IMG/VR virus record: IMGVR_UViG_3300003316_000080
Location: 1 to 64,000 of that record
Reading direction: 5' to 3' (one strand)
Length of the DNA stretch: 64,000 nt
DNA from: a virus
Position numbers and translations under genes: made by a program. The first letter of the stretch is position 1; every line of letters begins with the position of its first letter. Of the stretch, positions 57,143 through 64,000 are shown piece by piece. The notes beneath the pieces were generated by a model. The model was not told the origin of the DNA. It saw nothing but the letters and a program-made list of their open reading frames with translations, and made no database searches.

Positions 57143-59227
57143 ATGGCGACCAATGAATTTCTGCCCTTTGCCACAGACGCTGGCGCCGAGGTTGATACTC
57201 AGGCTGTGTGGGCTTCTCCTAGTGGTTACCGCCCGGTAGGTTATGGACCTGGGATTCTGACGAAAGAAAAGCTGAACAAGGCTCTTCGTCAGAGCACCTC
57301 TATCGCCTCTGCCGTCGCTCAATTGATGGCAGAGAACCTGCCCAGTGAAGACATCCTGGATAACGGTGACATCAACACGTTGGTGGACCAACTCTCGCGG
57401 GCTGTGATCACCGGTACATTCCTGAGTGGCACTGCCAGCACGCAGGGCTCGAACGCCGTTGGCACGCGTCAGAACTTGGCAGGGGCTGTCGATCGCACAC
57501 AACATGAAAAGAACGCCGACTTCATCAGCGTGAAGGATTTCGGTGCTGTTGGTGACGGTGTGCACGATGACACGACGGCTTGCGTGGCCGCAGCCACGGC
57601 CGCTCTTGCAGTTGGAGCGGGTCTGTATTTTCCAGACGGCCGCTATTACATCAACGGACTTTTCAGTGTCCCGAACAAAGTATCTTTGTATGGGTCTGGT
57701 AAGACTACCAGCGAGATCCAGTTCGGTTCCTCTGGAAGCCTTCGTGTGGTCGGCACATCACCCAGCTACGTGGGGCGTTTGTCTATCAGTCGACTAGGCT
57801 TGACCAATCAGGGCGCGGGTTCCCCCTTCGGCATTCAGTTCACGTATGCGACTCGCATCACGATGTACGACTGTGTCGTCTATAACACCAGCATTCAACT
57901 GTCTGCGTTCTCGTACATCACCTTTGAAAACTGTGACCTGTTTGGTGGCAGCATTCAAGGCGACCACCCCACAGTCAACGAGATCAGTGAAGCACTGAAG
58001 ATCATCGGCTGCAACGGCAGCAACTTTGCGATTAACGTGAAGGACACTGCCGACGTTCTCGTGTCACGTACACATCTGCTTGGGCCCACCTCACAGATCA
58101 TGATCCAGCGTGGCGAGCAAAACAGCGCGTTTTACCCACCTGTACAGATTGCCAATTGCATTGTGGATTCTGGTGATGATGAAGGCATTTATCTGATTGG
58201 CGTTGCGCCAAGAATTTCGGATACCTTCGTCAGCAGTGGTCGCACCAACCTGAAGTCAGGTGTGCGCTTGAATGATTGCATTGAAGGCAGCTTGATCGGT
58301 GTTACGGCGCGCTTTTGCGGCAATCATGGTCTGCATGTTGGCTTCAGCAAGCAGATCAAGGTTTTGGGGGGCCATTTTGACGACAACAAGGTGTCGGGTG
58401 TGCGTATCGGTGATTCGTCAGATCTGACTTTCATCGGCAATACGATGATGAACCAGCCATCGTGGTTCGGTGGTAGCTACCCACAGGTAAACGGCATCAC
58501 GGATGAGCCCTCGAACTGCACGAACATCACATGCATCGGAAATCAGACGGTGGGCAACACGAGTGCTCAGGTGTACCTGCCGTCTGCTACCAACATCATC
58601 CACAGCAACGTCGGATACAACGAAGGTCGCCTGACCTGTGATAGCTGGCGCAACAACACGGACAATGCGGCGTCTCTTGGGACTGCCGGCGCTAGATACA
58701 CCGTGGTGCATGCGGTCAGTGGCACCATCAACACGTCAGATGCCAATGAAAAGCAGGATATCGAAGATATTCCTGTGGAGTGGTTAGAGGCATGGTCCTC
58801 CGTAAGGCGTGTGCGCTTCAAATGGAAGGACGCTGTGCAGAAGAAAGGCACCGGTGCCCGTTGGCACATCGGTCTGATTGCACAAGAGATCTGGGAGGCT
58901 TTCGCCGCTCGCGGTATCGACGCGTTCGAGATTGGTCTTCTGTGTTATGACGCGTTCGAAGAAGTACCAGAGCGCACGGTGGAAGTGCCTGAAATCCCGG
59001 CACTCGTCATCGAGCACCCAGAAGTTCCTGAAGTGCTGGATGAAGACGGCCGTGTCATACAAGAATACAAGCCAGGATGGCACGAAGTGGTCGAAGAAGC
59101 GCAGCCAAGCCGTGTAGTAGTCGTCCAGGAGTACAAGCCTGCTGGTGGTCGCTATGGTGTGCGTTACGAAGAGGCTGAGGCACTAGAGGCCGCTTGGGTT
59201 CGCTGGAAATTGGAATCTCTTCAGTAA
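57143..59227 (+). CDS. tailspike, right-handed beta-helix (pectate-lyase-like) with C-terminal intramolecular chaperone domain
   Basis: ISVKDFGAVGDGVHDDTTAC; C-terminal SDANEKQDIEDIP (S74-like); N-terminal ~50 aa similar to preceding fibre. Confidence 0.65.
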   Translation: MATNEFLPFATDAGAEVDTQAVWASPSGYRPVGYGPGILTKEKLNKALRQSTSIASAVAQLMAENLPSEDILDNGDINTLVDQLSRAVITGTFLSGTASTQGSNAVGTRQNLAGAVDRTQHEKNADFISVKDFGAVGDGVHDDTTACVAAATAALAVGAGLYFPDGRYYINGLFSVPNKVSLYGSGKTTSEIQFGSSGSLRVVGTSPSYVGRLSISRLGLTNQGAGSPFGIQFTYATRITMYDCVVYNTSIQLSAFSYITFENCDLFGGSIQGDHPTVNEISEALKIIGCNGSNFAINVKDTADVLVSRTHLLGPTSQIMIQRGEQNSAFYPPVQIANCIVDSGDDEGIYLIGVAPRISDTFVSSGRTNLKSGVRLNDCIEGSLIGVTARFCGNHGLHVGFSKQIKVLGGHFDDNKVSGVRIGDSSDLTFIGNTMMNQPSWFGGSYPQVNGITDEPSNCTNITCIGNQTVGNTSAQVYLPSATNIIHSNVGYNEGRLTCDSWRNNTDNAASLGTAGARYTVVHAVSGTINTSDANEKQDIEDIPVEWLEAWSSVRRVRFKWKDAVQKKGTGARWHIGLIAQEIWEAFAARGIDAFEIGLLCYDAFEEVPERTVEVPEIPALVIEHPEVPEVLDEDGRVIQEYKPGWHEVVEEAQPSRVVVVQEYKPAGGRYGVRYEEAEALEAAWVRWKLESLQ

Positions 59228-59238
59228 ACTTCTTACTG
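59222..59238. repeat. CAGTAAA-palindrome motif copy (CAGTAAACTTCTTACTG)
   Basis: contains stop codon of tailspike gene; followed by hairpin 59239-59257. Confidence 0.5.
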
Positions 59239-59275
59239 GGCCGCTGAAGTGGCGGCCTTTACACAAAGGGCGGAC

Positions 59276-59635
59276 ATGAGCCATAACAGCTTGGAGGAGC
59301 CTTTCCGTTTGGGCAATGTGCCTGACGGACTGGCTTCTGGGGAGGCCAAGATCCTTGCGCAGATGATCATTGCCGTTGATCGTCGGTGCGAGCAGACGCA
59401 CGAGGATCTGCCCGACATGATCTCAACCGCAGTGGCACGGCACCTGGAGGAGCGTGCATTGACGCCGGAGCAGCGGCAGTTCCTGCTGATGCTGATCAAG
59501 CGTGAAGAGCGACGCGATGCCCTGCGCAAGGCAGTGATCGAAAAGACGGTGACGGGTCTAATGTGGTCCCTCGTCGTGGCTGCAGGCGTCATCCTGCGGG
59601 AGTGGTTTCAATCTCACATGGGGAAGACGCCGTGA
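59276..59635 (+). CDS. membrane protein, holin candidate
   Basis: single C-terminal TM (VTGLMWSLVVAAGVIL); immediately upstream of endolysin. Confidence 0.35.
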   Translation: MSHNSLEEPFRLGNVPDGLASGEAKILAQMIIAVDRRCEQTHEDLPDMISTAVARHLEERALTPEQRQFLLMLIKREERRDALRKAVIEKTVTGLMWSLVVAAGVILREWFQSHMGKTP

Positions 59636-60420
59636 GCAAACTCGACGATGCCATCGCGCGACTGAATGCGCGGAACTTCAACTGGCCCATTCCCTGGGAG
59701 GTCGTCGAGACGATGGCCCGCAAGGAGAACTGCTTTCTGGTCGCGTATCTGTGCCCTGCCGGCGTGTGGACGTGCGGCTGGGGCGAGACAGAAGGTGTGA
59801 CGGCTTCGACGCGCTGGACGGCTGATCAAGCTGACCAGCGCTTCTTCGATTCCGTCAGCAAGTTCGCGGCCAAGGTGGAAGCGCTGTGTGCCGACGCACC
59901 TACCACACCGAACCAGCTGGGCGCCATGACCTCACTAGCGTACAACATTGGACTGGCCGGCTTCAGCACCTCGTCTGTGCTGAAGGCCCACAAGCGTGGA
60001 GAGAGTGCTGCTGCGGCCCGCGCCTTCTCCCTGTGGAACAAGATGCGTGTGGGCGGCAAGGGTCCGCTGGTGGAAGCTCGGGGCCTGACGGCCCGGCGCG
60101 CCATGGAAGCGGCGTTGTACCTCAAGCCCGAAGATGAAGCACCGGCCGAACTGACCAGTCAAGCCGTTGCTGACGAGAGCAAGCTGACAGCCTCGCCGAT
60201 CAGCCAAGCCGGTGCTGCCACGGCGGCCACAGGTGTCGCGGCGACGCTGGCCTCCGTGAACGATCAGGCATCGACGGTGCAGACGCTGACGTCGACGGTT
60301 GCCGGTATCGCGACGTCGATCGGTGTCCAGCCTGGGGTGCTGCTGGGCGCGGTGCTGGTGGGTGCCGGCGCTGTCACGTTGTACTGGCGCTACCAGCAGC
60401 GCAAGGGTGGCTGGGCGTGA
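59632..60420 (+). CDS. endolysin, GH24 (T4-lysozyme-like) with C-terminal hydrophobic helix
   Basis: ENCFLVAYLCPAGVWTCGWGET; C-terminal GVLLGAVLVGAGAVTLYW; GTG start overlapping upstream stop. Confidence 0.7.
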   Translation: MSKLDDAIARLNARNFNWPIPWEVVETMARKENCFLVAYLCPAGVWTCGWGETEGVTASTRWTADQADQRFFDSVSKFAAKVEALCADAPTTPNQLGAMTSLAYNIGLAGFSTSSVLKAHKRGESAAAARAFSLWNKMRVGGKGPLVEARGLTARRAMEAALYLKPEDEAPAELTSQAVADESKLTASPISQAGAATAATGVAATLASVNDQASTVQTLTSTVAGIATSIGVQPGVLLGAVLVGAGAVTLYWRYQQRKGGWA

Positions 60421-60932
60421 TCTCAGCGCTTCTTTGGCTTGGCGGCCGTGCACTGAAGGTGTTGGGAAGCATCCCTGTGTGGGCGTACGCTGCGGCGGCA
60501 CTCTTTGCCTGGGGTGCTTACGGCCACCACAAGGCTACGAGCGCCAAGCTGGAGGCCGTTCAGCAGGAAGCGCGGGCCGAAGCCAAGTTGCGTGAGCAGC
60601 AGGAGAGCAACAGAAATGACGAGTGGACACGGAACGAATCGAATCGACTCATCGCTGCCAGTCTGGCAAAAGCAAGGGAGCATAGTCGGGCTGTTGAGCG
60701 TGATGCTGCTGGCCGGATGCGGGCACTTGCCGCAGCCTGGGCAGCAAGTGCAGCCAGTGCGGGTGCCGCCTCCTGCGCCGCAGCTGATGGAACCCCCGCC
60801 GTCGCAGTCCTTCGTGACGACGTTAGAGAAGTGCTTGTCAGCAACGCGGCCGTCGCGGACGGATTGCGAGATCAAGTGAAGGGTCTGCAGGACTACGTCA
60901 CCAACGTATGCCGGCCCGCCAGCGCTCCTTAG
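60417..60932 (+). CDS. i-spanin (Rz-like)
   Basis: N-terminal TM IPVWAYAAAALFAWGAY followed by coiled coil; hosts embedded o-spanin. Confidence 0.6.
   Translation: MISALLWLGGRALKVLGSIPVWAYAAAALFAWGAYGHHKATSAKLEAVQQEARAEAKLREQQESNRNDEWTRNESNRLIAASLAKAREHSRAVERDAAGRMRALAAAWAASAASAGAASCAAADGTPAVAVLRDDVREVLVSNAAVADGLRDQVKGLQDYVTNVCRPASAP
60616..60879 (+). CDS. o-spanin (Rz1-like lipoprotein) embedded in +1 frame of i-spanin
   Basis: ATG 60616 with AGGAGAG SD; lipobox LLAGC; Pro-rich mature part. Confidence 0.6.
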   Translation: MTSGHGTNRIDSSLPVWQKQGSIVGLLSVMLLAGCGHLPQPGQQVQPVRVPPPAPQLMEPPPSQSFVTTLEKCLSATRPSRTDCEIK

Positions 60933-61543
60933 TACCAGCCCTCCAGGCCGAGTCGAGTTCGCTGCTCACTCGGTAGACGCGCCTGCCCATCGGTGTAGTC
61001 GCGCAGCAGCTCCCGGGCCCGCGACAGATCGACCAGATCCTTTTCCGTGCTCAGGATCTCAGTCTGCTTGCCTTCAATCTTCTGTTGTATCAGGCCGCCG
61101 ATCACGTTCTCGCCTGTCTCCTTGAGAAACCGCACAGACGACGCCTTGCGTGTCAGAAACGCGAGATCTTGTTGCAGATGCCTGATGGCTCGCTGGACCT
61201 GCGTGATGCGGTCAGCGATCACGATGTCCGTTGACTCGATCACGTCCATCAGGCCGGGCGCGTTCATGTTGGCCGTCAGCACAGCACTGACAGCGTTCAG
61301 CATCACCTCGCGAGCATCAGTGTCCTTGTCGACCTGCTCGATGCGCTTTTCTTCATCCCATAGTCGGCGCTTCTCCGCGTCGAGCAGGATGCGCGCTGCC
61401 TCGTTGATCTGAACCATCACGGCCGGGTCGCCGCCGCGATCCGGGTGATTGTCCCAAGCGAACTTGCGCCGGGCCTTCTTGATGTCGTCCAGGCTGCAAT
61501 TCTTGTCGAGTTGCAGGATGCGATAAGGGTCGAAGTTGTCCAT
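60929..61543 (-). CDS. J-domain (DnaJ-like) protein
   Basis: DPYRILQLDKNCSLDDIKKARRKFAWDNHPDRGGD with HPD motif. Confidence 0.75.
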   Translation of the reverse strand: MDNFDPYRILQLDKNCSLDDIKKARRKFAWDNHPDRGGDPAVMVQINEAARILLDAEKRRLWDEEKRIEQVDKDTDAREVMLNAVSAVLTANMNAPGLMDVIESTDIVIADRITQVQRAIRHLQQDLAFLTRKASSVRFLKETGENVIGGLIQQKIEGKQTEILSTEKDLVDLSRARELLRDYTDGQARLPSEQRTRLGLEGWY

Positions 61544-61545
61544 GT

Positions 61546-61962
61546 TCAGCTTCCGTAGTTCTTGATCAGATAGTCACGCAGCGCTTCATAGCCGGCCATC
61601 CACTGGCCGTCCGCGCATGCATCCCGATTGCTCTTCAGGAATTCTTGTGCCGTGGGGATGTGTGCTGGGATCGTCATGGTGCGCGGCATGTTCTGGGAAT
61701 AGCCCGTGCCGGACACAGACCCTAGGCCAACTACGGCCTTGCGCATAGGCACGCCCTTGGAGTCTTTGCTGGAGGACCCGTCTTCGATCATCCAGTGTCC
61801 CGTTGCTTTGGGCACGTTGTCGCGGGCCCATTTCCAGCCGTTAAGCCAGGATTGGCGTTGCCCGTCAAAGAAACGATCAAATCTTGACGGTGGTGCCTCA
61901 TGAATGCCCTTGCCAGCCCGATAGGCGTCCACGCCCTGCTGCCACAAACTGATGCTGTTCAT
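61546..61962 (-). CDS. protein with N-terminal ribosome-modulation-factor (RMF)-like domain
   Basis: GVDAYRAGKG ... QRQSWLNGWKWA aligns with E. coli RMF GYQAGIAG ... QRSQWLGGWREA. Confidence 0.45.
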   Translation of the reverse strand: MNSISLWQQGVDAYRAGKGIHEAPPSRFDRFFDGQRQSWLNGWKWARDNVPKATGHWMIEDGSSSKDSKGVPMRKAVVGLGSVSGTGYSQNMPRTMTIPAHIPTAQEFLKSNRDACADGQWMAGYEALRDYLIKNYGS

Positions 61963-62159
61963 GTCTCTTCCCTCAGTTGCCGCCGCTCACGCAGTTGATG
62001 CCGGCGCTTGCGTGCTTGTTGTGATTCCGCCCACAGCCAGCCGTTGGTCCACGACCAGCTAGGTCGTCCGTCTTGCTCCCGTGGGGCATCACCACGCCCT
62101 TCCCCACGCCGGAAGGCATCACAGCCCTCCTGCCAACGAGAGACGAAACGATTCACCAT
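61959..62159 (-). CDS. small RMF-like protein (paralog)
   Basis: GCDAFRRGEG ... RPSWSWTNGWLWA; tandem with previous gene. Confidence 0.4.
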   Translation of the reverse strand: MVNRFVSRWQEGCDAFRRGEGRGDAPREQDGRPSWSWTNGWLWAESQQARKRRHQLRERRQLREET

Positions 62160-62623
62160 GACTTCGGCGGCGGGATAGGGGTGTCGTCGTCCAAGGGCAC
62201 AAAGAACCTGACCGCCGCTGGATTCGTTGCTTTGTGGAAAGCTGCTGACATTTCTTTCTGAAGTTGATGCTCGAAGTTCTTGACCTCGTCATTCGCTTCC
62301 CGCGCCACGCTCTCAGGATCGAGCAGCATGCGAAGTTGTTGGTAGTGGCTGGAGTGGCGGATCACAGACGAGTCGTACATCAGGTCACGGGCACGGTTCA
62401 GGCGCGCTTGCAGTTCCACGTTGGCGTGGCGCAGCTTGCCTGATTCATGTGCTTCCGCCAGCCGCAGAGAGCGGCACTCAGCGTGGTGCGTGCGCTCCGT
62501 GTCCAGATCCGCCTGCACGATCGCGACTTGATCCTTCGCACACATCCAGCCTATGAACAGACCCACGATTGCCCCGAAAAGCATGAGGGTCACCATCGCT
62601 CCACCGATCATCCAGTCCGACAT
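62153..62623 (-). CDS. membrane protein with N-terminal TM and coiled coil
   Basis: ATG 62621-62623 about 30 nt downstream of promoter -10; MSDWMIGGAMVTLMLFGAIVGLFIGWM. Confidence 0.45.
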   Translation of the reverse strand: MSDWMIGGAMVTLMLFGAIVGLFIGWMCAKDQVAIVQADLDTERTHHAECRSLRLAEAHESGKLRHANVELQARLNRARDLMYDSSVIRHSSHYQQLRMLLDPESVAREANDEVKNFEHQLQKEMSAAFHKATNPAAVRFFVPLDDDTPIPPPKSW

Positions 62624-62647
62624 GTTGTTGCTCCAATGAGAAAGGGT

Positions 62648-62683
62648 GCAGAGATTATATACAAACCTCTGCACCCTCTACAA
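62648..62683 (-). promoter_or_regulatory. leftward sigma70-like promoter (TTGTAG-N18-TATAAT) with -10 inside 10-bp inverted repeat
   Basis: -10 = revcomp of 62654-62659; inverted repeat GGGTGCAGAG 62644-62653 / CTCTGCACCC 62667-62676; CAGTAAA motif 62684-62698 adjacent. Confidence 0.35.
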
Positions 62684-62698
62684 GAAACTTTTTACTGG
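62684..62698. repeat. CAGTAAA-palindrome motif copy (CCAGTAAAAAGTTTC, minus orientation)
   Basis: abuts stop codon of leftward gene and -35 of leftward promoter. Confidence 0.5.
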
Positions 62699-63148
62699 TC
62701 AGCGCAGGAACAGCACATCTCGTAGATACCTCATGACGTGTTCCTGTATCACATCGTTGTAGCAGTCCAGCACCACGTGTGAAAAGCGCAGGCCACGCAG
62801 CATGGCGAGATCTTCCAGGCGATCGAAGGCGAAGGCCATCATGACGTTGGTCAGGTCGCTCTTCCGAGTCACGATGATCGGGTTGCTGTTGCGGTTGAAG
62901 CTAAAGCCCTCCCCGGCCAGTAGTCCCGTCGCGACCATACGACGCAGGTGCTGCTTGCCTTGGATCAGGAGCAGCATTTGCTCAGGCTCCGCGTGCCTCT
63001 TGGTCTGTTGCTCCAGAGCCTTCGCCGCCCTTTCCAGCGCCTGGGCGGCTGCTTCCTTGTTGCCGACGGCGAGGTCATCGGAAAGGATGCCGACGGCCAG
63101 TGCTCGAACGAGTTCCGCGTCGGTCACTTGGTTCTTCGCTTCAGTCAT
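62699..63148 (-). CDS. hypothetical protein
   Basis: ORF track; stop directly abuts CAGTAAA motif. Confidence 0.45.
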   Translation of the reverse strand: MTEAKNQVTDAELVRALAVGILSDDLAVGNKEAAAQALERAAKALEQQTKRHAEPEQMLLLIQGKQHLRRMVATGLLAGEGFSFNRNSNPIIVTRKSDLTNVMMAFAFDRLEDLAMLRGLRFSHVVLDCYNDVIQEHVMRYLRDVLFLR

Positions 63149-63375
63149 GTCTTGATCTCCATATGATGCAGTTGGTTGTTGATGTCCTGAAGCTCTTGCT
63201 TGATGCGAGCGATCTTCTCTCTGGTGCGCGTGGCTTCATCAGTAGACCACCCGAGGGTGCGCATGCGATCACACGCCTTCTGCAGGGCCTGGAGATCCAA
63301 GGCCCGGTGAATGTCCGATCGGATGGACGCGTGGCGCTGTAGTTCAAGCGCACTCAGTTGCTGGATCTTGCTCAT
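63145..63375 (-). CDS. hypothetical protein (76 aa)
   Basis: ATG 63373-63375 with GGAAGGA SD; a 23-aa hydrophobic micro-ORF (63372-63443) lies immediately upstream. Confidence 0.4.
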   Translation of the reverse strand: MSKIQQLSALELQRHASIRSDIHRALDLQALQKACDRMRTLGWSTDEATRTREKIARIKQELQDINNQLHHMEIKT

Positions 63376-63493
63376 TGCTTTCCTTCCGATTTGATGATGA
63401 CCCACAGCACAACGATGCTGCCCAACAGAATCACCCACGACATATAGCTCTCCAGGCGTATGCGAAAGGAGGCGCACAGACCTCCTTGATGCA

Positions 63494-63982
63494 TCAGCCC
63501 ATGAACGGCTCCGGCTGCGACATCACCTCCCGATGACGACGCACGTGCTCTTCCAGGACCGCCAGCATGTTGGGAGCGATGTAGTTCACACCCTTGATCC
63601 ACTTGCCGTCAGGTGTCTTGTCGATCTTGCCGGTCGCCGGGTTCGCCTTGGAGGCGTTTCCGCGATTGGCTTCGACGAAGGCTTCGCGCCCAGGCACACC
63701 GGCCGCGAGAGAGAAGCCAGCTGTGACCACGGCAACGTCAGCGGCGCCGTCGATGATCTCTTTGAACATGGACAGAGGCGGGACCGTACTCCAATGGTCG
63801 GACACGCTTTCCAGCAGTTTGCGGATCTTCTTGGATTGATAGCCCATGTTCGATCGAACTTGCTCAATCGAGATCACTGCATCTCGCAGGGCCGGTGCTT
63901 CGTTTCCACACCTCGACGCCAGGATTGCCACCAGCGCTTCACCCAGTTCACTGGCTTCTTCCAGGATCAGTGCGTAGTACAT
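63494..63982 (-). CDS. mazG: MazG-like nucleotide pyrophosphohydrolase (may extend past right edge)
   Basis: LILEEASELGEALVA resembles MazG/HisE EExxE motif; frame stays open upstream of ATG 63982 to window end. Confidence 0.45.
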   Translation of the reverse strand: MYYALILEEASELGEALVAILASRCGNEAPALRDAVISIEQVRSNMGYQSKKIRKLLESVSDHWSTVPPLSMFKEIIDGAADVAVVTAGFSLAAGVPGREAFVEANRGNASKANPATGKIDKTPDGKWIKGVNYIAPNMLAVLEEHVRRHREVMSQPEPFMG

Positions 63983-64000
63983 CAGCGCACCCTTGTTGAT

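Follow-up and report, generated by a model that had tools for sequence, protein, structure and literature searches.

We analysed a 64,000-nucleotide stretch of viral DNA (IMG/VR record IMGVR_UViG_3300003316_000080, positions 1 to 64,000; hereafter the window), the right-hand end of which carries a leftward run of closely packed open reading frames (ORFs) on the minus strand (60929-64000). Two adjacent genes of this run, which we call C66 and B, encode small proteins that resemble ribosome modulation factor (RMF) and that we assign, on the evidence of profile comparisons, to the Rmf/CrpP-fold superfamily. A preliminary description of this DNA, made by a model from the letters alone, had listed the ORFs of the cluster, all of which were found on the minus strand at the coordinates given below, and had proposed that the RMF-like pair, a J-domain protein and a MazG-like enzyme together form a module for manipulating host translation or the stringent response. 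The two genes and their parts are as follows.

61959-62159, minus strand: C66, 66 amino acids, predicted Rmf/CrpP fold
C66 residues 8-48: predicted helix-loop-helix core, followed by an arginine-rich C-terminal helix
61962..62021, minus strand: arginine-rich tail of C66, residues 47-66, QQARKRRHQLRERRQLREET
61546-61962, minus strand: B, 138 amino acids, predicted Rmf/CrpP fold plus an extra domain
61807..61962, minus strand: predicted N-terminal Rmf/CrpP-fold domain of B, residues 1-52
61555..61650, minus strand: predicted C-terminal helical hairpin of B, residues 105-136

The start codon of C66 overlaps the stop codon of the preceding gene, D (ATGGTGA), the B start overlaps the C66 stop (ATGA), and the start codon of the following gene, J, lies 2 nucleotides past the end of B. 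The ribosome-binding site of B lies within the last codons of the C66 tail.

C66 as a gene, and the anatomy of the two proteins

On L003, a contig identical to the window, the gene caller had taken an overlapping frame of 49 amino acids (L003:63-209) over C66, and on the related contig L001 the C66 orthologue was not called at all. The alternative frame has the higher GC content at third codon positions (GC3; 0.76 vs 0.58 in the C66 frame), and GGAGGG stands directly upstream of its GTG. However, of the 14 substitutions that separate the window from L001, 11 affect the third codon position when read in the C66 frame, the ratio of nonsynonymous to synonymous change (pN/pS) for the same pair is 0.08 when computed for the C66 frame, vs 2.06 for the gene caller's, and intact orthologues of C66 are found in L001 (L001:3808-4002, 64 amino acids) and in a second related contig, L004 (P0003, 63 amino acids). 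This comparative evidence settles the matter, and C66 is therefore a genuine gene under strong purifying selection. A word-indexed homologue search with C66 gave no match because its frame had never been called as a gene, and the exact protein is missing from a collection of 5.8 billion protein clusters for the same reason, having been mis-framed or left uncalled.

AlphaFold2 modelling gave confident two-helix hairpins for both C66 and the N-terminal domain of B. In C66 (predicted local distance difference test score, pLDDT, 90.5) the helices span residues 8-17 and 35-65; the C-terminal helix, RKRRHQLRERRQLREET, holds all of the positive charge, the core domain has a net charge of 0, and the isoelectric point (pI) of the protein is 11.2, vs 10.9 for RMF. 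The tail is the best-conserved segment in comparison with P0003, to which C66 is 56% identical, and DNA similarity to L004 in the C66 region is limited to 61921-62045. Arginine-rich helices are typical binders of nucleic acid, and of RNA in particular.

The model of B comprises the N-terminal Rmf/CrpP-fold domain (pLDDT 83-96; helices 6-15 and 33-49), a disordered Ser/Gly-rich linker and the C-terminal helical hairpin. The N-terminal domain is 98% identical to that of the L001 orthologue, and no DNA alignment of B to L001 was obtained over 61546-61803. Relative to L001:4612-4812, the C-terminal two-thirds of the gene have been replaced or have diverged past DNA alignment, which leaves a sharp mosaic boundary within B, with phage DNA on either side that is 89-95% identical. 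The B orthologues P0002 and P0004 (identity 41-59%) have in common with B the terminal motif G[YW].AL..YL, and the region between the N-terminal domain and this motif varies among the relatives. A word-indexed homologue search with B returned only B itself and P0002, and phmmer of B against the PDB gave no match.

Relationship to the Rmf/CrpP fold

Common to B and C66 is the pattern W-Q-x-G-x-D-A-[YF]-R-x-G ... A-P ... S-W-x-N-G-W-x-W-A, and BLASTP aligned the two proteins at 40% identity over 58 amino acids (E 7e-10), which identifies them as paralogues. The RMF signature that had been described for both genes is present in its motifs, except that C66 has Ser, and not [QR], at the opening of the second motif. 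Of the window's 1,444 six-frame ORFs, a profile (A7) built from unrelated phage members of the family only matched just two, C66 at 37.8 bits (E 1.6e-10) and B at 27.6 bits (E 2.4e-7), a signal far stronger than chance would give. In the opposite direction, a profile of the B/C66 N-terminal domain was run with HMMER exhaustively against 1.84 billion representative proteins and gave only ten matches at E<=1e-3, which include the orthologues P0002, P0003 and P0004 as well as small phage proteins with WQEGxDAARAG...CPY...WxNGW. P0005, P0006 and P0010 were found by this profile at E 2e-5 to 3e-4; P0005 and P0010 pass the Pfam RMF model (31.0 and 30.3 bits; cut-off 27.9), P0006 and P0010 pass NF041886 (31 and 29.7 bits; cut-off 28), and P0006 falls just short of NF041887 ("Rmf_like_phage, Rmf/CrpP fold protein").

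Alignment of profiles with hhalign related the B/C66 clade to the phage clade at 98.3% (E 1.6e-14) and to E. coli RMF at 56% (P 1.1e-4), and the phage clade to E. coli RMF at 81% (P 1.2e-5). When 177,635 PDB sequences were searched, the B/C66-only profile matched RMF chains only (2jrm, E 0.035; 4v8g, E 0.18), and a wider profile matched three RMF entries (E 1e-4 to 1.4e-3). RMF 2jrm also ranked first when the B model was compared with the PDB by Foldseek, at a non-significant E of 1.8; the predicted structures agree with a relationship to RMF but are no proof of it. Because of the profile link to proteins that pass the family cut-offs, and because RMF was the only family matched in the PDB, membership of B and C66 in the Rmf/CrpP-fold superfamily is, at the level of sequence profiles, well supported.

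The residues by which RMF acts on the ribosome offered a closer comparison. In RMF the conserved Arg3, Lys5, Arg8, Arg11 and Arg15, located in helix 1 and an N-terminal extension intertwined with S7, grip the 16S rRNA backbone, and Arg37, Glu10 and Gln39 contact S1 (10.1101/382572). Arg11 aligns to Ser in our proteins, and Arg15 aligns to Gln in B and to Glu in C66, Arg3 and Lys5 align ahead of the first residue of either, and only Arg4 of C66 may match Arg8; at least four of the five rRNA-binding basic residues are missing in both B and C66. An equivalent of Arg37 is kept only in B, P0003 and P0004. Where RMF and the phage clade have a Cys-Pro-Tyr (CPY) motif, B and C66 have Ala-Pro-Pro or Ala-Pro-Arg. 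The nearest relatives of the pair are acidic (pI 4.4-5.8), and their genes lie among small early genes beside a primase-type protein, thymidylate synthase or RdgC (L005, L006). Since the rRNA-contact residues and the Cys and Tyr of the CPY motif are missing, the core of C66 has no net charge and the nearest relatives are acidic, B and C66 are not RMF orthologues. The homology to RMF that had been proposed for them therefore stands at the superfamily level, by hhalign and by the RMF-only PDB matches, and fails as a claim of orthology, both on the model thresholds considered below and on the contact residues.

Further relatives were few. The B/C66 alignment found none in a collection scan of IMG/VR, tblastn of B, P0011 and E. 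coli RMF against the phage database gave no match, and P0006 had no match among plasmids; tblastn of P0006 against the phage database gave weak matches only, to "hypothetical" genes of Streptomyces, Brevundimonas and Delftia phages. That phage homologues of RMF are not commonly annotated, as the preliminary description had remarked, holds for GenBank phage records, which say "hypothetical", and does not hold for NCBIfam, which has NF041887. In the literature we found no description of a phage-encoded RMF and no link of CrpP to RMF function. B and C66 form a divergent and rare clade, seen in three related contigs only, and the lineage is a sub-clade that every curated model has missed. The search of representative proteins also brought up a 377-amino-acid, low-complexity, eukaryote-like protein (P0009) with three repeats of SSW[LM]Q[HY]GCDAFEEGE[RK]GGGPPP, which are similar to the first helix and loop of C66 (E 1.5e-4).

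The neighbouring genes and the phage

The other members of the cluster are listed here in order from J.

60929-61543, minus strand: J, J-domain protein, 204 amino acids, last gene of the leftward cluster
62153-62623, minus strand: D, 156 amino acids, with an N-terminal hydrophobic helix; 89% amino-acid identity to L001
62699-63148, minus strand: E, 149 amino acids; 82% identity to L001
63145-63375, minus strand: F, 76 amino acids, probably helical; the start is the ATG of MSKIQQ, as in the L001 gene call
63494 to beyond 64000, minus strand: G, MazG-like; the ORF exceeds the end of the window

The start of D was set at an internal ATG (MSDWMIGG), as in L001. Library scans with Pfam, NCBIfam, PHROGs and PADLOC took in all seven cluster proteins, and the only significant matches were to the J-domain and to PHROG 671; D, E and F matched no family, and neither HPF nor any other translation gene was found in the cluster.

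J matches Pfam DnaJ (PF00226) over residues 5-63 (E 3.2e-12; 46.8 bits, cut-off 27.8), and its translation contains the HPD tripeptide at H33-P34-D35, so that the earlier identification of a DnaJ-type J-domain protein with an HPD motif was borne out. A helical C-terminal region of about 140 amino acids follows the J-domain. Amino-acid identity of J across the window, L001 and L004 is 95-97%, with a ratio of nonsynonymous to synonymous substitution rates (dN/dS) of 0.05-0.07. Collection scans of IMG/VR, JGI metagenomes and GTDB genomes gave no relatives of J, and full-length homologues were found in unrelated phages: in Edwardsiella phage ZHS (L007, 31488-32138), Rhizobium phage RHph_N65 (L008) and Alteromonas phage R7M (L009), at 23-30% identity over 86-88% of the length of J, and in Tetrasphaera phage TJE1. 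In ZHS and R7M the gene lies inside RecA/exonuclease/helicase modules. The label given to the RHph_N65 homologue, "putative protease/scaffold protein", seems to be an annotation error.

G matches PHROG 671, "nucleotide pyrophosphohydrolase" (E 8.7e-14). Pfam PRA-PH stayed below its cut-off of 21.3 bits, both with the part of G in the window (12.5 bits) and with the full-length L001 orthologue (13.6 bits), and PDB sequences gave no match. The translation contains the motifs E8-E9-x-x-E12 and E75-x-x-D78, which from general knowledge of the family we take to be metal-binding. The assignment of G as a MazG-like, all-alpha NTP pyrophosphohydrolase-like protein, as the preliminary description had it, is therefore plausible from PHROG 671, even though the Pfam cut-off was missed. 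Two details of that description were not sustained: the ORF does not start at 63982, as the frame stays open to base 64000 and the part within the window is the C-terminal ~168 codons, and the gene does not flank the RMF-like pair, from which it is separated by about 1.3 kb and the unrelated D, E and F. The N-terminal region of the L001 orthologue (L001:1413-2216, 267 amino acids), about 55 residues long, is hydrophobic and probably spans the membrane, an unusual feature in a pyrophosphohydrolase of the MazG type.

The order C66, B, J is kept in the window, L001 and L004, and in all three the B stop and the J start are 2 nucleotides apart or overlapping. In L001 the orthologues of C66 and B are separated by an inserted NinX-family gene (L001:4005-4442; PF10765, E 1.1e-10), and the two paralogues therefore need not adjoin. 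Replacement of C66 by NinX in that contig was considered and ruled out, C66 being present there, although uncalled, with NinX inserted between it and B. Outside this lineage, no Rmf-like ORF was found near the J homologues of ZHS, R7M, RHph_N65 and TJE1, no J neighbour was found for the Rmf/CrpP-like genes in L005 and L006, and an annotated MazG-like gene lay less than 2 kb from J in RHph_N65 only. The lone J homologues and lone Rmf-like genes rule out J and an Rmf-like gene as a conserved pair. Because J and Rmf-like genes occur apart outside the lineage, the grouping of J, Rmf-like and MazG-like genes appears to be lineage-specific operon packing, confined to three closely related contigs. 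The proposed module for manipulating host translation or the stringent response was accordingly not upheld: no functional link to translation or (p)ppGpp was found, and the grouping is not conserved. Since J is 95-97% conserved, B (41-59%) and, in L004, C66 (56%) are far less so, and the NinX insertion is tolerated, the pattern fits fast-evolving accessory host-interaction genes beside a conserved co-chaperone.

The window had no near relatives among 50,697 phage records, its sole match there being the major capsid gene of Edwardsiella phage vB_EpM_ZHS (74%), and megablast of the cluster against the phage database gave no match. Related contigs bear Pfam marks for tail and baseplate that take their names from the Pseudomonas phages E217 and Pam3. 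From the absence of near relatives and these E217/Pam3-type marks we therefore conclude that the source is a novel myovirus of about 67 kb (67,482-base contig). The window holds no tRNA genes, and scanning 59000-64000 for promoters and terminators was not informative.

The cluster converges with a rightward lysis cassette, which itself lies 3' of tailspike and baseplate genes. Within the cassette (59249-60932, plus strand) lie a small ORF (59249-59635), an endolysin (PF00959) whose C-terminal segment is hydrophobic, and an Rz-like i-spanin (60417-60932, plus strand; PF03245, E 1.2e-4) in which an ORF with a lipobox (LLAGC) is embedded out of frame (about 60616-60879) and looks like an Rz1-type o-spanin. 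Because the Rz and J stops overlap convergently (60929-60932), there is no space for a terminator between them. The product of the tailspike gene (57143-59227, plus strand) combines a right-handed beta-helix of pectate-lyase type with an intramolecular chaperone domain, Peptidase_S74, at its C-terminus, which suggests a polysaccharide-degrading receptor-binding protein, and this region diverges strongly among the window, L001 and L004.

Interpretation and comparison with known systems

The explanation that we favour, with moderate confidence, is that B and C66 are translationally coupled tandem paralogues of a separate, rare Rmf/CrpP-fold clade, encoded in the phage's leftward operon of non-structural genes, in which the hairpin serves as a compact scaffold for lineage-specific effector extensions. 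The conserved Trp/Gly/Ala/Pro signature would most likely form the structural core of the hairpin. In C66 the extension would be the arginine-rich C-terminal helix, which may bind nucleic acid, with RNA as the best guess, and in B it would be the flexible linker and C-terminal helical hairpin, which may bind a protein partner, the two proteins acting as small host-takeover or accessory factors. J would be a separate, far more conserved co-chaperone that presumably recruits host DnaK, as Rki of phage RB43 does; its adjacency to B would reflect operon packing and not a conserved functional module, and the MazG-like G would be a further, unlinked member of the operon.

Several observations weigh against this explanation. 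A direct match to PF04957, the check that had been set for both small proteins, was not obtained: B scored 11.2 bits against the Pfam cut-off of 27.9, and C66 had no match at E<=1 to any Pfam or NCBIfam RMF/CrpP model. B likewise scored 11.0 bits with NF011162 (cut-off 40) and 15.2 bits with NF041886, Rmf_CrpP_fam (cut-off 28; E 0.012, profile match 4-39 of 39), and neither protein matched NF041887 (Rmf_like_phage) or NF033696 (CrpP_fam) at E<=1. To our knowledge, only RMF has a settled function among proteins of this fold, and the roles given here to the C66 tail and the C-terminal hairpin of B are pure inference. In addition, the tight translational coupling of B and J in three phages could mean that these two proteins act together.

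The most direct alternative is that C66, B or both are functional analogues of RMF. They would bind the 30S subunit at or near the RMF pocket (anti-Shine-Dalgarno region) and, in an infected cell, silence the host's ribosomes or re-programme them; the basic element that binds rRNA, which in RMF lies at the N-terminus of helix 1, would in C66 have been relocated to the C-terminus of helix 2. The superfamily homology, the retention of the S1-contacting Arg37 equivalent in B, P0003 and P0004, and the conserved arginine-rich helix of C66 with its RMF-like pI are consistent with such a role, and both ends of the hairpin would emerge on the same side. However, the proteins lack at least four of the five rRNA-backbone residues, the S7-intertwining N-terminal extension and the Cys and Tyr of CPY, they fall under all RMF model thresholds, their nearest relatives are acidic and lie beside replication genes, and their cluster contains no HPF or other translation gene. 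We regard this alternative as unlikely, and the missing contact residues contradict canonical RMF-type ribosome binding by either protein. A variant that we think decidedly improbable would make C66, possibly with B, an RMF-fold derivative whose relocated basic helix targets the 30S subunit or structured RNA, with J bringing DnaK there; if true, it would be a phage ribosome-associated chaperone and translation-control unit, for which there is no described precedent in a bacterial virus. To credit this phage with ribosome hibernation or with control of the stringent response would be unsupported speculation.

The coupling of B to J, together with conservation of the C-terminal G[YW].AL..YL motif despite divergence of the middle region, would instead suit B as a targeting adaptor for J, its C-terminal hairpin docking on the helical domain of J and its Rmf-like domain selecting the client or site for DnaK, so that B and J would work as a single functional unit. 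We consider this rather improbable, as J is nearly invariant among the three phages, yet the C-terminal half of B is unalignable at the DNA level, and the four other phages with full-length J homologues have no Rmf-like neighbour. Least probable, and largely refuted, is the view that the likeness to RMF is a chance or convergent motif, or that C66 is not a gene but a decayed duplicate, with the 49-amino-acid frame being real. Although C66 had no significant direct match in any library, the fold searches did not decide the matter (the best PDB match of B had E 1.8) and the alternative frame has the higher GC3 and the upstream GGAGGG, this view is opposed by the pN/pS values, by the intact orthologous ORFs in L001 and L004, by the independent A7 profile match and by the hhalign and PDB results, which tie the clade to Pfam-RMF-positive proteins and, among all PDB sequences searched, to RMF chains alone.

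The value of the locus at present is moderate, and it is a well-characterised lead rather than a discovery. One operon holds the same hairpin with two different extensions, the arginine-rich helix of C66 and the linker and helical domain of B, which makes a natural comparison, and the pairing could help to reveal the use of the Rmf/CrpP fold on mobile elements. There is also a practical warning, in that automatic callers mis-frame or skip the 66-amino-acid gene on L003 and L001 despite the strong purifying selection upon it.

For J, there is a precedent in Rki of the T4-like phage RB43, a phage J-domain protein that engages DnaK (PMC3486835). The two are alike in being phage-encoded and in having an N-terminal J-domain with HPD and an unrelated C-terminal region, and J would by analogy be expected to engage host DnaK. 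The comparison is through the J-domain only, and the distant full-length homologues of J sit in recombination and replication modules.

RMF (PF04957, NF011162; PDB 2JRM, 4V8G, 6H4N) shares with B and C66 the G-x-x-A-x-x-G of helix 1, the linker Pro and the W-x-x-G-W of helix 2. RMF is the product of a chromosomal stationary-phase gene, whereas B and C66 are phage-encoded and lack its N-terminal basic helix extension, and B, at 138 amino acids, has a second domain. CrpP (NF033696), a small mobile-element protein associated with pUM505 and with an integrative and conjugative element (ICE), belongs to the same superfamily as B and C66, but its context is the ICE, whereas theirs is a lytic-type phage operon. 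CrpP was first reported as ciprofloxacin-phosphorylating, an activity that was later disputed (Zubyk & Wright 2021, as cited in PMC9495688).

The phage Rmf/CrpP fold proteins (NF041886, NF041887; P0005, P0006, P0010-P0016) have in common with B and C66 the core W-Q-[EQ]-G-x-[DN]-A-x-R-x-G ... P ... W-x-N-G-W, the two-helix hairpin, a similarly small size and a context of small non-structural phage genes. They are acidic, and in many of them the C-terminal tail is acidic as well (EDDEL, DDDLFGDDNSDLF). Among P0010, P0012, P0013, P0016, P0005, P0006, P0011 and P0014 these tails take the form ...DDDLFG[DE]DNSDLF or ...EDDEL, and we take them to resemble the C-terminal tip of single-stranded DNA-binding protein (SSB) or the QL[SD]LF clamp-binding motif; P0010 and P0016 also have a zinc-ribbon-like insert, CPEC...C..GHG. 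The acidic-tailed clade could have a role related to replication or repair. Unlike these phage relatives, C66 has an arginine-rich tail and B a linker and an extra helical domain, and tandem duplication is seen only in the B/C66 lineage.

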